From a bacterium (GTDB lineage Bacteria > Patescibacteriota > Dojkabacteria > B142 > OLB20): a stretch of DNA of 45,488 nt. The stretch spans positions 255,269-300,756 of the forward strand of contig JAJTYI010000009.1 in assembly GCA_021463645.1 (NCBI GenBank), read 5' to 3'. Position 1 is the stretch's first letter. Every line of letters begins with the position of its first letter. The notes beneath the pieces were generated by a model. The model was given only the letters and a program-made list of their open reading frames with translations. It did no database searches and had not been told where the DNA came from. A program made the translations under genes and the position numbers. Below are positions 34,699 to 45,488 of this stretch, one piece after another.

Positions 34699-34980
34699 CT
34701 ATTTACGGACAATATGGGGGGTGTTTCGAAGATTCCCAATATTTAATTTAAGACGATTTATTTTCTCCTCCCTACTCCATTTCTTAATCTCAATCTCTCG
34801 TTTCAAAGCTTCAGACCAGCTCTCGAAACATTCCGTATAAATTAATTTAAATGGCTTCCTGCTGTTAACGTATTTTGACCCTTTGCCACTATTGTGTACT
34901 TCTAAACGCTCTTCAATATCTTTAGCAACACCTGTATAAAGTGAGTTGTCCCTGCATAATAATATATATAAGTTGCACAT
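34699..34980 (-). CDS. Stand-alone GIY-YIG nuclease (YhbQ/UPF0213-like)
   Basis: LYILLCRDNSLYTG, RLEVHNSGKGSKY, ALKREIEIK. Confidence 0.92.
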   Translation of the reverse strand: MCNLYILLCRDNSLYTGVAKDIEERLEVHNSGKGSKYVNSRKPFKLIYTECFESWSEALKREIEIKKWSREEKINRLKLNIGNLRNTPHIVRK

Positions 34981-34984
34981 CAGG

Positions 34985-35284
34985 TTATTTGATAATGGAT
35001 TTTGAAATTGCCCCCACGAAAAGCCTGTAAGCAGGTCTTTTCTCAGGTTTATAAATGTAATGAATTCCTATTAAAGTATCACAATTATCGCAGTATAAAT
35101 CACTATTCTCAGATTTAGTATTAATATCGAATATTCTGTCTAAATATAGTCGTTTAAGAATCCCTGGTCCATCTTTTTGATATTTAGCAATTTTAGACAT
35201 ACAACTACTACATTTTATTTGGTAGAGCTTCGTGTTCGAACCTCTACTCTTATAATATCTGTCTTTTTGGATTTTGTATCTCAT
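34985..35284 (-). CDS. Hypothetical protein with two CxxC pairs (Zn-binding)
   Basis: CSSC...YQKDGPGILKRLYLDRI...CDNC. Confidence 0.7.
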   Translation of the reverse strand: MRYKIQKDRYYKSRGSNTKLYQIKCSSCMSKIAKYQKDGPGILKRLYLDRIFDINTKSENSDLYCDNCDTLIGIHYIYKPEKRPAYRLFVGAISKSIIK

Positions 35285-35550: not shown

Positions 35551-35805
35551 CTATAAATTAACGTTATTGTTAATTTTACATCTCAATCATTATTTTTCCA
35601 AAAAATATTATTTCTCTTCTTTTTTAATGATTTTACTGATAAAATCTTCCTACCCTTAAATAATTTCCCTTTTTAATAATAAAAACCGCCACAGGCTTAT
35701 TTAAAATTGGAAAAAAAATTAGGTTTGAGATATACTCAATTGTTCTTTGATTTGCAAGGATTTAATGCTTTTTGCTGATTTTTGAAAGTCATTATGACTT
35801 AAGAA

Positions 35806-35870
35806 AAGCAAGCGCAAGCAGGAGTCAAGTCGCTAGCGATCTTGACGGATGCTGGAGCTTTGCTTCGACG
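35806..35870 (+). repeat. Structured leader cassette upstream of tRNA-Tyr, homologous to 36957-37022
   Basis: Nested stems aagcaag/ctttgctt, agca/tgct, gtcaag/cttgac; ends GCTGGAGCTTTGCTTCGACG. Confidence 0.75.
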
Positions 35871-35872
35871 CA

Positions 35873-35955
35873 GCAGAGGTGACGGAGCGGTCAAACGTAC
35901 CAGACTGTAAATCTGGCGGCGAGAGTCTACGGGGGTTCGAATCCCTCCCTCTGCA
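35873..35955 (+). tRNA. tRNA-Tyr(GTA), CCA not encoded
   Basis: GCAGAGG/CCTCTGC, CCAGA-CT-GTA-AA-TCTGG, long variable arm, GGGGG-TTCGAAT-CCCTC. Confidence 0.96.
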
Positions 35956-36023
35956 ATTAATTTGTAATAGCTCGTTATAATAAAAATGTTATGTTCGAAA
36001 AATCGATTGGGATGAAAAGTTTA

Positions 36024-36134
36024 CCCCGTGAATCGAACATAGTGAGATTGCACGGGGAATCCCTCCCTCTGCACCAATTCATTCAACGAACTTTGTGAGT
36101 TGAAAATGAATTGAGTGCCTGACTTTGGCAGGCA
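36024..36134 (+). repeat. Hairpin cassettes surrounding a 3'-end copy of tRNA-Tyr (36057-36076)
   Basis: CCCCGTG...CACGGGG (36024-36057), GAATCCCTCCCTCTGCA+CCA, CAATTCATT...AATGAATTG (36075-36113), TGCCTG...CAGGCA (36116-36134). Confidence 0.8.
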
Positions 36135-36294
36135 TAAGATTAGAATAGCTCTTTATAAGTAATATAATGCTGGAGTAGCTCAGTCCCGATAAATTGTAAC
36201 TCTGTTACAAATTTATCGTGGATCCTCACTGTTCTAATTCATCCCTTCTGGAGAAGGGAGGAAAGAACAGTGGGATTGGTAGAGTCCCGCAGGA

Positions 36295-36479
36295 GCTGGG
36301 ATAGCTTCCCGCTTCGCTTAAGCTACGCGGGACAGGCAGTTGGTTAGAGTCACTCCTCAGCTGGAGTAGCTCAGTTGGTAGAGCAACGGTTTTGTAAACC
36401 GTCGGTCATGGGTTCGAGTCCCCTCTCCAGCTGAGGAGTGATAAACAGTAGGTCGAGAGTTCGAATCTCTCCCCCAGCT
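36295..36479 (+). pseudogene. Middle tRNA shell (Thr-like, different isoacceptor) lacking the anticodon, with a 30-nt D-stem insert
   Basis: GCTGGGATAGCT[30 nt]CAGTTGGTTAGAG[...]TAAACAGTAGGTCGAGAGTTCGAATCTCTCCCCCAGC. Confidence 0.82.
36360..36432 (+). tRNA. tRNA-Thr(TGT), intact innermost gene, CCA not encoded
   Basis: GCTGGAG/CTCCAGC, GCTC/GAGC, ACGGT-TT-TGT-AA-ACCGT, GGGTTCGAGTCCC. Confidence 0.96.
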
Positions 36480-36525
36480 CCAACGGGATAAACCGTCGGT
36501 CATGGGTTCGAGTCCCCTCTCCAGC

Positions 36526-36608
36526 TTACTAGAGTTTCTTAATGAATAATGTGAATTTAGAAACTCTGTAATCCTCGAAATTGAGCGTAGCGAAATTATC
36601 GAGGATCT
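36526..36608 (+). repeat. Two-hairpin trailer cassette, homologous to 31524-31605
   Basis: TTAC.AGAGTTTCT...AGAAACTCT.GTAA followed by TCCTCGA...TCGAGGA-TCT. Confidence 0.85.
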
Positions 36609-36642
36609 TTACAAATTTAAATAACTATTAATAACAAAAATA

Positions 36643-36810
36643 ATGGCAAAAAAAGGAAATAGAATAATTATTAAGATGGCCAATCCTAAGACTGGTACAT
36701 TTTATATAACAAAGAAAAATAGAATAAATACGAACGAAAAAATTGAAACCAAAAAGTTCGATAAGAAAACACGTAAACACGAGAAGTTCATTGAATCAAA
36801 AGTAAAATAA
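36643..36810 (+). CDS. rpmG: 50S ribosomal protein L33 (Cys-free); below the ORF-track cutoff
   Basis: Translated by hand: MAKKGNRIIIKMANPKTGTFYITKKNRINTNEKIETKKFDKKTRKHEKFIESKVK; lies upstream of tRNA-Trp-secE-nusG. Confidence 0.93.
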   Translation: MAKKGNRIIIKMANPKTGTFYITKKNRINTNEKIETKKFDKKTRKHEKFIESKVK

Positions 36811-36918
36811 TATTTAAAAATTAAAAAATTTAAGTATTAAGAGATTATAAGACGAGAATAATCTGAGTTATTAGTTCAGATTATTTAATAATGAAAGTTC
36901 TTTAATAATTTTCTTTTA

Positions 36919-36949
36919 AGATTTTAACGACTATAAGGAGTTAAAATCT
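36919..36949 (+). repeat. Tandem-GA hairpin cassette
   Basis: AGATTTTAAC-GA-CT-ATA-AG-GA-GTTAAAATCT. Confidence 0.75.
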
Positions 36950-36956
36950 CAAAGGA

Positions 36957-37022
36957 GCAACAGGTGGAAGCTGAAGTGAAGTACTTTAGCATCTTCACAA
37001 AAGCTGGAGCCTTGTTGCGACG
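36957..37022 (+). repeat. Structured leader cassette upstream of tRNA-Trp, homologous to 35806-35870
   Basis: gcaacagg/ccttgttgc, agct/agct, gtgaag/cttcac; ends GCTGGAGCCTTGTTGCGACG. Confidence 0.75.
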
Positions 37023-37023
37023 A

Positions 37024-37095
37024 AGGGTCATGATGTCAATGGTAGCATGGAGGTCTCCAAAACCTCTCGTCTAGGTTCGAATCCTAGTGACCCTG
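37024..37095 (+). tRNA. tRNA-Trp(CCA), CCA end not encoded
   Basis: AGGGTCA/TGACCCT, GAGGT-CT-CCA-AA-ACCTC, CTAGG-TTCGAAT-CCTAG. Confidence 0.96.
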
Positions 37096-37247
37096 TATGA
37101 AAGTATATAAGTAAAAAGCAAAATACTTTCGTCTAGGTTCCCCCGTATTAAATACGGGGCTAGTGACCATGTATGAAAGTATATAAGTAAAAAACAAAAT
37201 ACTTTCGTCTAGGTTCCCCCATATTGAATACGGGGTTAGTGGCCATG
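37096..37247 (+). repeat. Two tandem 76-bp units, each carrying an interrupted copy of the tRNA-Trp 3' end
   Basis: tatgaaagtat...atactt-TCGTCTAGGTTC[ccccgtattaaatacgggg]CTAGTGACCATG at 37096-37171 and 37172-37247. Confidence 0.9.
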
Positions 37248-37318
37248 AACTAAAAAATTGGAAATTTAATAAAAAAACAAAATAGTAAAATATAGATATT
37301 ATTGATATAATCAACATT

Positions 37319-43661: not shown

Positions 43662-45149
43662 GTGAGCAAATCAAAAAAACGAATCAGAACAAAAAAGTTC
43701 CTCAATACTTTATTGGTAATTATAGTAGTTACGCTATTCATTAGTACAGCTATTATAGCAATTATCTACACCCAAGGGGGGAAAATCACCAGAACAGGTA
43801 TAGTCGAGACTGGTAGTATAAGACTAGAAATACAACCTGAAGATAAAGAAAATTTGGTATACCTTGATGACAAACAAATTAAATCAGACGAAAGATTAAT
43901 CAATAATATCACTCCGGGTATTCATACCATTAGAATTGAATCCACAAAGTTTCATAGTTGGGAAAAAGATATTGAGATTTCCCCCTCATACGTTACTACA
44001 CTTCAAGTAAAGTTATTTCCCCTAGAACCAGAACTAACTCAATTAACACAGACTAACATCTCAAAACTATTCTTCAGCGAGGACGGATCTTATGCTTATT
44101 ATCTTGTAAATGATTCACTTGTAGAACCAAATGATCAAGGCCTATGGCGACTTAGACTTGAAGAACAAGAATTATTCTTTAGAAGAAACTCTGATCCAGA
44201 GAAAATTATTGGGCTTGAAGATACTTCACTTTCATATTTTACGGATCCTGATATTGAAGTAATCATCGATCAAACTAATAATAAGATGTTAATCGTAAAT
44301 CCTACTCTTCAAACAGTCACAATTTTTGATCCCACAAAGTCAAACACAGCCGAAAAAATTATAAATTTAAATGAACAAGTTGGTTTCTATCCTACTCAAG
44401 TGAACTGGTTCAATAACAACAACTCTATTATCGTATCTAATGATGAAATAATTATTGAATATAATATTATTAATCAAGAAAAAACAATTGTGAGTTACTC
44501 ACCAGATACAGAACCTATCTATGATACAGATGGAGAGGTGCTTTACACATACTCTTCTGCCAATAATACAATCAGCCTATATCAGAATCAGATAGCCCGA
44601 GTTTTACAGTTGCCTTCGAATTTCCCCATAAATAATATAAATGATCTCAGATTAGCTAGAGATGGTTCTTCGATTATTATTAGAAGTGATTCCATTTACT
44701 ATTATTACCAACTGGAGAAAAAACAATTTATTAAGATTAGTGATACTGGAGAAATTATCAACATAAGCTTTGATGGCACAAGTATTATCTTTAACATTAA
44801 TAATCAAGTTGTCTTCACTGTTATAGAAAAGTCACTCATAGATTTATCCTTATCAGTTAAGTCTACCCCGTCAATGATTGATGTAAACTTAAATCCTAAA
44901 TACATTAATAACTCAAATCTTGTGATAATAAATAACTACCCTCTAGAAAAGATACAAATTAGCGAGAATGATGGAAGTAATATAATAGATATTTTGAATA
45001 ATACCACTATCGACAATGGGTATTATAAGTTCCAAGAAGATGGATCCAGCCTAACACTTATGGTCGAAGATTCTTCAGAAGAAAATATACTGAACAAAAA
45101 TCTGTTTAAACTTGTACTAAATACTTCATCACTTCCGTTTAACCTCTAA
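43662..45149 (+). CDS. Membrane-anchored PEGA-domain protein with probable beta-propeller
   Basis: N-terminal TM, TGSIRL...ITPGIHTIRIE...WEKDI, FSEDGS-type repeats. Confidence 0.75.
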   Translation: MSKSKKRIRTKKFLNTLLVIIVVTLFISTAIIAIIYTQGGKITRTGIVETGSIRLEIQPEDKENLVYLDDKQIKSDERLINNITPGIHTIRIESTKFHSWEKDIEISPSYVTTLQVKLFPLEPELTQLTQTNISKLFFSEDGSYAYYLVNDSLVEPNDQGLWRLRLEEQELFFRRNSDPEKIIGLEDTSLSYFTDPDIEVIIDQTNNKMLIVNPTLQTVTIFDPTKSNTAEKIINLNEQVGFYPTQVNWFNNNNSIIVSNDEIIIEYNIINQEKTIVSYSPDTEPIYDTDGEVLYTYSSANNTISLYQNQIARVLQLPSNFPINNINDLRLARDGSSIIIRSDSIYYYYQLEKKQFIKISDTGEIINISFDGTSIIFNINNQVVFTVIEKSLIDLSLSVKSTPSMIDVNLNPKYINNSNLVIINNYPLEKIQISENDGSNIIDILNNTTIDNGYYKFQEDGSSLTLMVEDSSEENILNKNLFKLVLNTSSLPFNL

Positions 45150-45177
45150 TGCCCTATACGCTTATAACTTTGTGGGG

Positions 45178-45488
45178 TATAATCATGTGAGGGATTAACG
45201 AACCAAACGAAGTGAAGGTGAGTTTACCCGAACATGTCCCGTAAACGAGCGTAGCGAGTTATACGGGACCTAACGTTAAGTTCGCTATAATTTTAGGAGG
45301 TGTTGACGAACACAAGCCATAGGTGATGTGTGAGTCTAACCGAACTTATCCCGTAAACGAGCGCAGCGAGTTGTACGGGATCTAATGTAGTGTTCTGTAA
45401 AATCAACCGAGGGGTTAACGAACCAAACGAAGAGCAGGTGAGTTTACCCGAACTTGTCCCGTAAACGAGCACAGCGAGTTATACGGGA
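45178..45488 (+). repeat. Array of three or more ~110-bp double-hairpin units, truncated by the window end
   Basis: Units start GAGG at 45189, 45297 and 45409; TCCCGTAAACGAGCnnAGCGAGTTRTACGGGA at 45237, 45349 and 45457. Confidence 0.92.

Follow-up and report, generated by a model that had tools for sequence, protein, structure and literature searches.

The window analysed here, a stretch of 45,488 nucleotides from a bacterium of the Dojkabacteria lineage of the Patescibacteriota, contains a tRNA-Thr locus in which one intact gene lies inside an interrupted tRNA body that itself lies inside another, each of these two shells being parted from what it encloses by a short inverted repeat, or clamp. 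Coordinates without a prefix are window positions; the window's own genome is designated G000, an assembly of 1.2 Mb in nine contigs (C1-C9) with 35% G+C, 88% completeness and 41 tRNAs found. The comparison set consists of the same-genus genomes G002, G003 and G004 and of the metagenome locus L189, in which L33 is 95% identical; a 15-mer scan of genome contigs returned at least 119 chance matches in unrelated phyla, and loci L013-L131 were not used.

The innermost member of the stack is a tRNA-Thr(TGT) called by ARAGORN and scored at 69.3 bits by the Rfam tRNA model, which is the sole Thr(TGT) gene in G000 and is 100% identical to a plain, unenclosed gene in G004. Its clamp is a perfect 10-nt inverted repeat that prolongs the acceptor stem into a helix of 17-18 bp (z = -6.6); in a census of all 41 tRNAs of the genome, only five have a perfect acceptor-stem extension of at least 7 nt. 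The arms of the outer clamp are complementary at eight of their ten positions, and both clamps are 10 nt long, with TC at the start and GA at the end. The outer shell repeats the inner tRNA letter for letter minus 11 nucleotides (nt 25-35), its 3' half matching at 38 of 38 positions by blastn, and at both levels of the nest the junction reads GAG/TC...GA/TAA, the shell breaking off after nt 24 and resuming at nt 36. Both shells thus lack two bases of the anticodon along with the 5' side of its stem, and both carry an insert in the D loop, of 92 nt in the outer and 30 nt in the middle shell; the latter comprises a 26-nt TCCCGC...GCGGGA hairpin, found again elsewhere in G004 at 94% identity, plus CAGG. 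The whole nest region is predicted to fold at z = -8.5, as computed against 100 shuffles. Every piece of the nested layout that the first-pass annotation had read from the letters is present in the sequence (Table 1).

Table 1. Features of the nested tRNA-Thr locus, contigs that tile it, and candidate mobile components (window positions unless a contig is named)
Feature	Position	Strand	Remarks
Outer shell 5' piece a, tRNA-Thr(UGU) nt 1-15	36169..36183	+	Identical to inner tRNA; upstream flank aligns to flank of plain G004 gene
Outer D-loop insert, 92 nt, two tandem hairpin units (36184-36222 and 36223-36275), each TCC...GGA	36184..36275	+	Pure insertion relative to plain G004 allele
Outer shell 5' piece b, nt 16-24, ending in D-stem GAG	36276..36284	+	Identical to inner tRNA
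Outer clamp, left arm TCCCGCAGGA	36285..36294	+	8/10 complementary to 36479-36488
Middle shell 5' half: nt 1-12 (36295-36306), hairpin and CAGG (36307-36336), nt 13-24/25 (36337-36349)	36295..36349	+	
Inner clamp, left arm TCACTCCTCA	36350..36359	+	Perfect complement of 36432-36441; identical in L189
Intact tRNA-Thr(UGU), probably the sole functional gene of the stack	36360..36432	+	Rfam, ARAGORN
Inner clamp, right arm TGAGGAGTGA, including discriminator T	36432..36441	+	Perfect complement of left arm
Middle shell 3' half, nt 36-73	36442..36479	+	34-mer exact in intact G002 tRNA-Thr(TGT)
Outer clamp, right arm TCCAACGGGA	36479..36488	+	Variant present in L189
Outer shell 3' half, nt 36-73	36489..36526	+	38/38 to inner tRNA; downstream flank aligns to downstream flank of G004 gene
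Two-gene unit in same tRNA cluster: 99-aa CxxC protein (34985-35284) and 93-aa stand-alone GIY-YIG protein (34699-34980)	34699..35284	-	PF01541, 75 bits
REP-like family sites in G000	C6:43150-43800; C6:45750-46400; C1:99994-100075; C2:51541-51620; C5:71590-71668		
Logan contigs X2	35800-36408, 36403-36518, 36497-36900		
Logan contigs X12	35800-36394, 36398-36521		
Logan contigs X3	35926-36405, 36450-36788		

The identity of the shells follows from the same site in relatives. G004 has a tRNA-Tyr followed, after a spacer of 34 nt, by its plain tRNA-Thr(TGT), and because window positions 36134-36184 and 36489-36574 align on either side of that gene, the outer shell is the gene that first resided there, still in position. 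The 34-mer of the middle 3' half occurs with 0 mismatches in G002, within a tRNA-Thr(TGT) gene that is intact and plain and has tRNA-Tyr and rpmG as its neighbours, which is the orthologous site, so that the middle shell represents a second allele of tRNA-Thr(UGU); at up to two mismatches its pattern is present in only seven of 220 genomes of the class, and the tRNA letters of the middle 5' half match the G002 gene at 22 of 25 positions (here and for G003 the letters of this half were compared by eye). The earlier suggestion that the middle shell derives from a tRNA-Thr(CGT) encoded elsewhere has to be given up: the Thr(CGT) gene of G000 does match the 3' half at 36 of 38 positions, but the match to the allelic Thr(TGT) gene of G002 is perfect and orthologous. 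The two allele types differ at nt 30, within the 11 replaced nucleotides, and the stack runs from outer to inner as type 1, type 2, type 1.

Two further relatives carry part of this layout. In G003, the outer D-loop insert, the outer left arm and the middle 5' half are followed by a clamped tRNA-Thr(TGT), to the right of which there are no shell halves; the outer left arm is a different 10-mer, again with TCC at its start and GA at its end, the middle 5' half has its hairpins at other D-loop positions, and the inner clamp, of different sequence, is once more a perfect 10-nt repeat with TC at the start and GA at the end. The tRNA letters of the middle 5' half are identical in G000 and G003 whereas the adjoining clamp differs at seven of ten positions, each change being mirrored in the other arm. 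The clamps of these two genomes may therefore mark two different cassettes that landed at one site, which would bring the count to at least three events under one rule, and the idea that the repeated use of one junction and a 10-nt clamp betrays a rule-based insertion is supported by this recurrence with a different clamp sequence. L189 has the same inner clamp and tRNA as G000, a middle 3' half that differs by one substitution, and the outer right arm in variant form; it has neither a 5' half nor the outer 3' half.

The site is accordingly polymorphic for the presence of the nest, which is absent in G004 and G002, full in G000 and partial in G003 and L189. As the shells are one-sided in the latter two and missing in the former two, they are dispensable and have been eroded from either side, while the clamped inner gene is kept in G000, G003 and L189 regardless of shell loss. 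When metagenomes were scanned for the sequence that joins the outer to the middle 5' half, there were 0 matches. Matches to a "5' fragment" in many relatives were mostly the neighbouring tRNA-Thr(GGT) and were set aside, as was contig C27 of G001, where the gene is a Thr(CGT) and is not informative.

Partial tRNA copies are widespread in this genome. When same-strand tRNA fragments within 1.5 kb of an intact gene were counted with one script for G000 and controls, 28 of the 41 G000 tRNAs had partial copies nearby, 5' ends lying upstream and 3' ends downstream, against 1/21 and 2/23 (3/44 in total) in control metagenome loci of closer and more distant relatives. All five tRNAs with a perfect clamp of at least 7 nt adjoin disrupted copies. 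The tRNA-Arg(TCG) gene forms a single nest with a TCCCG...CGGGA clamp; at tRNA-Arg(TCT), a 5' part in which three tandem TCC...GGA hairpins sit cleanly between nt 35 and 36 precedes a clamped intact copy; and tRNA-Leu(TAG) is accompanied by a shell whose hairpins sit at the nt 35/36 junction and within the T loop. Two 5' halves upstream of tRNA-Met in G000 carry the same double-hairpin D-loop insert as the outer Thr shell, which gives, with the Thr loci of G000 and G003, a family of four copies; RNAalifold pairs these in 26 positions, six of which show compensatory changes. Interrupted and nested tRNAs thus exist elsewhere in G000 and in its relatives, and the possibility raised by the first-pass annotation that the Thr nest is a one-off rearrangement does not apply.

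About 20 of some 30 insert units, tallied by eye from printed sequences, begin with TC and end with GA, and a second family is of the CCTGCCTGCGCAGGCAGG kind. The word TCCCGC is not enriched as a repeat across G000 (168 occurrences vs 136.5 expected). Clamps are not conserved on the same tRNAs in congeners, and a search there for the tRNA-Arg loci of G000 aligned only the tRNAs, the flanks being too diverged for a comparison of filled and empty sites.

The neighbours of the nest within the window have relics of their own. The tRNA-Tyr at 35873-35955 has no encoded CCA, and some 55 nt further on lies a relic T arm with the 3' strand of the acceptor stem, ending in CCA (the whole spanning 35873-36076, the relic 36009-36076); because the plain tRNA-Tyr of L189 ends in CCA and is directly followed by the same trailer as this relic, the relic is the old 3' end of the gene. 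Its T loop contains an GAAAAGTTTA module and a 34-nt hairpin, and this T-loop module is also present in G000 relics of Lys(TTT) and Ile(TAT), in one of Lys(CTT) in G004 and in one of Tyr in G003. Downstream of tRNA-Trp (37024-37095) there are two tandem 3' relics, at 37130-37171 and 37206-37247, each made up of the variable region, the T stem and the acceptor 3' strand, with the T loop replaced by a CCCCG...CGGGG hairpin.

A number of side observations concern the same kind of locus. Directly upstream of tRNA-Trp, within 36930-37022, stands a structured leader of about 70 nt (GGAGCAACAGG...GCTGGAGCCTTGTTGCGACGA) that forms a long imperfect hairpin; a clearly related leader is found upstream of tRNA-Tyr in L189 (at about 2010-2095) and a looser likeness upstream of tRNA-Tyr in G004 (L003, minus strand). 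Tandem units of about 110 nt, ending in a hairpin of the form CCCGTAAACGAGC..GCGAGTT.TACGGG, lie upstream of tRNA-Asn (C4:185200-185420) and at a contig end (C9:300380-300756, about 45110-45488 of the window), and related modules follow the broken D loops of 5' fragments of tRNA-Lys and tRNA-Gln in G000, G003 and G004. ARAGORN calls a tRNA-Ile with the anticodon TAT, uncommon in bacteria, at C5:1705-1778, and two 3' relics are found downstream of it.

Possible agents of such changes are encoded close by. In the overlapping two-gene unit of the same tRNA cluster, a pair that is also found between tRNA-Thr(GGT) and tRNA-Ala in L189, the 99-aa CxxC protein gives weak, sub-threshold Pfam matches to the Yippee/Mis18 and RIG-I C-terminal zinc folds; together the two proteins could be a split pair of DNA-binding protein and nuclease, the GIY-YIG member being a candidate trans-acting nuclease. 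High-scoring GIY-YIG matches are also located on the Thr-gene contigs of G004 and G002, 1.2-2.9 kb from the gene. G000 contains nine small stand-alone GIY-YIG open reading frames (ORFs), four of which directly abut a pair of intact and disrupted tRNAs (His, Pro, Ser, Leu). The Leu case spans two contigs: the last ~86 nt of C7, past tRNA-Leu(TAG), are identical to the end of C3 on the reverse strand, and since both run into the same GIY-YIG ORF, the contigs join into the series intact tRNA-Leu, GIY-YIG ORF, hairpin-laden shell. In G003, a tRNA-Cys nest shows 5' shell, GIY-YIG ORF, intact tRNA and 3' shell in that order, and a tRNA-Lys is followed by a GIY-YIG ORF and a shell.

A REP-like family (TGTCAYTCCTGCGAAGGCAGGARTC), with 13 hairpins and three inverted doublets of about 85 nt in G000, forms the inverted terminal repeats around two further GIY-YIG ORFs of 94 aa, and the outer 8 nt of the inner clamp on each side, TCACTCCT and AGGAGTGA, equal the termini of this family. 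The layout resembles RAYT/REPIN systems, from which it differs by its GIY-YIG protein; a search for the Y1 transposase of RAYTs (PF01797) gave 0 matches in G000.

On balance, we lean towards the view that the locus results from two successive insertional replacements of tRNA-Thr(UGU), the split halves of which then decayed, and that only the inner gene works; the nest would most likely be a fossil at the level of DNA rather than a designed RNA. In this scheme, the resident gene would have been a plain allele of the G004 type, between the same flanks, that was struck in the anticodon arm. With the loss of nt 25-35, a cassette would have entered, consisting of a complete tRNA-Thr(UGU) of the second (G002) type within a short TC...GA inverted repeat, and this incoming gene would later have been struck at the same position by a cassette bearing the first allele type. 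The destruction of the resident gene would be tolerated because each cassette supplies a working copy, and once inserted the cassette could no longer be lost. The shells would then be relics that gather small palindromic hairpins in their D loops and that relatives delete. The layout of the locus, the shells as alleles, the variation among relatives and the occurrence of like loci elsewhere are direct observations, and the mechanism is an inference from them. The cut may have been made by a site-specific DNA nuclease acting in the anticodon arm, for which the stand-alone GIY-YIG proteins of the lineage are candidates, and the clamped cassette may descend, in miniature form, from the REP-like element with terminal inverted repeats, in which those copies that have an ORF encode GIY-YIG proteins.

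A bolder extension of serial replacement, which we put forward tentatively and hold to be possible but rather doubtful, is that these loci belong to an undescribed class of selfish cassettes that cut an essential tRNA gene in the anticodon arm and insert a hairpin-clamped substitute. Because the resident copy is destroyed, the cassette would become indispensable (a "hostage" replacement); GIY-YIG nucleases flanked by the same REP-like repeats would mobilise the cassettes in trans, and alleles of rival lineages would overwrite one another in turn, giving rise to stacks.

Several observations weigh against serial replacement or against its proposed agents. The tRNA letters of the shells are better conserved than would be expected of neutral relics, the middle 5' half being unchanged between G000 and G003 and the middle 3' half matching G002 at 38 of 38 positions, and the hairpins keep their pairing through compensatory changes; both could reflect constraint on an RNA, and they leave room for an RNA-level role, for gene conversion or for palindrome-correcting mutation. 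No nuclease gene is found inside the Thr nest, the nearest GIY-YIG gene being 1.2 kb away on the other strand, and among the best-scoring GIY-YIG loci in relatives only eight of 30 lie within 1.5 kb of a tRNA, so that the link between GIY-YIG genes and tRNAs holds for a subset of these genes. Of three clamps tested, one has the link to element termini: the word of the G003 clamp is found at just one place besides the clamp itself, those of the outer clamp recur no more often than expected, and neither clamp shows a connection to an element. Lastly, the pattern of alleles is not tree-like when set against the rough tree of neighbour-gene identities, ((G004, L189), G000), G003, and the order of events is therefore not fixed. 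Such a pattern may fit an element that moves between lineages, or reversion, as a plain allele could arise from a nest by deletion between direct repeats; none of the alleles found is an intermediate in which the outer shell encloses an undamaged middle gene.

Other explanations of the nest have been weighed against two rounds of replacement. In the first, the nest is a functional structured transcript under selection as RNA, its shells serving RNase P or RNase Z as tRNA-like handles, stabilising the pre-tRNA or acting as decoys that lack an anticodon. The very stable predicted fold, the six of 26 hairpin pairs with compensatory changes across four copies, the unusual conservation of the tRNA-derived shell letters and the perfect complementarity that the clamps retain in G000/L189 and in G003 despite their different sequences all speak for it, and small contigs of the metatranscriptome X15 that cover 35930-36046 and a variant of 36188-36349 add a weak hint, DNA being possible in such libraries. 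Yet no shell can fold in G003, which is without both 3' halves, or in L189, which is without both 5' halves, G004 and G002 manage without any shell, the shells have no anticodon strand, and the same tRNAs in congeners do not conserve their clamps. Template switching that corrects palindromes can, moreover, maintain perfect hairpins without selection. We therefore regard a functional RNA as unlikely, and of the roles that the first-pass annotation had proposed, the scars of a hairpin-mobilising nuclease come closest to the replacement scheme, whereas the processing scaffold and the decoy are improbable given the one-sided or absent shells in relatives and the missing anticodon strand.

The second alternative, to which we give a similarly small chance, interprets the partial copies as attachment-site (att) relics of integrase-driven elements that integrated in the tRNA gene and later decayed. 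The 3' partial copies begin in the anticodon loop or the T loop, places that Williams, in 2002, reportedly described as the classical ones for crossover. A PF00589 search of G000 returned two tyrosine recombinases, at C9:246867-247400 (~44 kb from the nest) and at C5:1049-1531, the second ~170 nt upstream of the tRNA-Ile(TAT) that carries 3' relics, and a precedent is given by an archaeal 5' tRNA fragment parted from its gene by a recombinase-bearing element (PMC3293823). At the Thr nest itself, however, there is no integrase within ~44 kb, and no integrase gene stands beside the duplicated tRNA segment; the 38-nt direct repeat formed by the 3' part of the inner tRNA and the outer 3' half is present, but the 5' halves are duplicated as well, and the 11 target nucleotides are deleted, not reconstituted. 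The inserted DNA consists only of a tRNA and a 10-nt inverted repeat, and any ORF that persists between a shell and its gene encodes a GIY-YIG protein and not an integrase.

A third possibility dispenses with a dedicated element and has DNA that was taken up from diverged relatives recombining where alone the sequence is conserved, in the tRNA genes, by homology-facilitated illegitimate recombination or template switching, with duplications and palindromes left behind. That the shells are allelic types of different congeners agrees with it, as does the neighbouring tRNA-Tyr, where a 3' relic, CCA and trailer that belong to the L189 type stand downstream of a complete G004-type gene; at tRNA-Met, simple tandem duplication could account for the repeated 5' halves in front of the gene. 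Such recombination nevertheless appears improbable to us, as the same two junctions and the same 11-nt loss are repeated at both levels of the nest and in G003, most inserts have TC...GA termini, the clamps are perfect, and partial copies are concentrated in the genus (28/41 vs 3/44 tRNAs).

The integrity of the assembly was followed in independent sequence data. Half or more of the sampled words of 35800-36900 are present in 14 DNA runs from at least six wastewater or sludge studies, and in three DNA runs from three studies (X2, X12 and X3 in Table 1) Logan contigs tile the nest with 0 differences and bridge every junction of shell and clamp. None of these three contains the whole nest in one contig, because the 38-nt internal repeat interrupts the unitigs; the arrangement of the pieces is taken from the original assembly and from there being only one path that uses them all, and Logan "joints" such as that from 35955 to 36442 in X3 may stem from related organisms. 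As contigs from three studies agree without a difference, the nest is not a one-off misassembly, and the misassembly that the first-pass annotation had named as a possible refutation can in practice be dismissed. That reads from strains differing in their tRNA-Thr alleles were joined into a chimera is very improbable, for although the nest holds internal repeats of 24 and 38 nt and is covered entirely by no Logan contig, its junctions are bridged in three studies, its words recur in the 14 runs, and partial versions of the layout occur in the independently assembled G003 and L189.

The locus is reproducible, rule-based and open to direct test, and although the organism is beyond culture, the turnover of alleles (type 1, type 2, type 1) can be read from it as from strata. 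It is a sign of an active process, directed at tRNAs, that has reached two thirds of such genes in a genome of 1.2 Mb, and it suggests a testable job for the abundant and unexplained stand-alone GIY-YIG proteins of Patescibacteria; if the link to the nuclease is true, the system would amount to a compact natural device for site-specific gene replacement. For annotators it holds a warning, since tRNA scans of such genomes miss dozens of hairpin-laden pseudo-tRNAs.

Among known systems, the disrupted tRNA genes of archaea, which include genes with multiple introns and split and permuted genes (PMC3218864), share with the present loci interruptions in the D, anticodon and T loops, complementary leaders and trailers and fragments beside a mobile element. 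The nearest precedent found is of this last kind, a 5' fragment of an archaeal tRNA-Thr left by a recombinase-bearing mobile element (PMC3293823). The archaeal pieces are spliced by EndA into a working tRNA, whereas here the joined shell exons, short of 11 nt, do not give a complete tRNA, a complete gene stands in the place of an intron, and EndA (PF01974) has 0 matches in G000 at its 88% completeness, a control search with the same family having matched four archaea. Nor does an Rfam scan of 35700-37300, at E up to 10, return a group I intron, only tRNAs and weak microRNA and small-RNA noise.

The phage T4 tRNA gene cluster contains SegB, a free-standing GIY-YIG homing endonuclease (PMC2330249), and resembles the Thr locus in having a GIY-YIG gene among tRNA genes and in the replacement of tRNA-region alleles between related genomes. 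T4 homing is reported to be a clean gene conversion without nested remains, and the GIY-YIG proteins of this lineage differ further in being bare predicted catalytic domains of 81-95 aa. For nested tRNA genes or GIY-YIG/tRNA cassettes in Patescibacteria, and for this way of replacing tRNA genes, we could not find an earlier description in a literature search of partial coverage, so that a prior one is possible.

REP and REPIN sequences, the small dispersed repeats of cyanobacteria, Correia elements and RPE are small palindromic repeats whose insertion sites include RNA genes and other such repeats. The hairpin units described here are like them in their conserved ends and variable stems, in their tandem and nested arrangement and in being tolerated in the loops of structured RNAs. 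They are unlike them in that the REP-enclosed ORF encodes a GIY-YIG protein, with no Y1 (RAYT) found in G000, and in that the "loop" of the hairpin is a whole tRNA gene.

Transfer RNA genes are classic landing sites of mobile DNA, and in known cases the gene is restored by supplying only its 3' end. Integrative elements with their attL and attR sites offer a parallel in that they likewise target a resident tRNA gene, are flanked by partial copies that start from the anticodon or T loop and keep the function of the gene through incoming sequence. The present locus departs from them in that both halves of the target remain while 11 nt are deleted, in that there is neither an integrase nor an element body, and in that the insert ends in a 10-nt inverted repeat extending the acceptor stem of a whole replacement tRNA. 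Here, on the replacement view, the target is destroyed and an entire substitute gene delivered, twice at one site.

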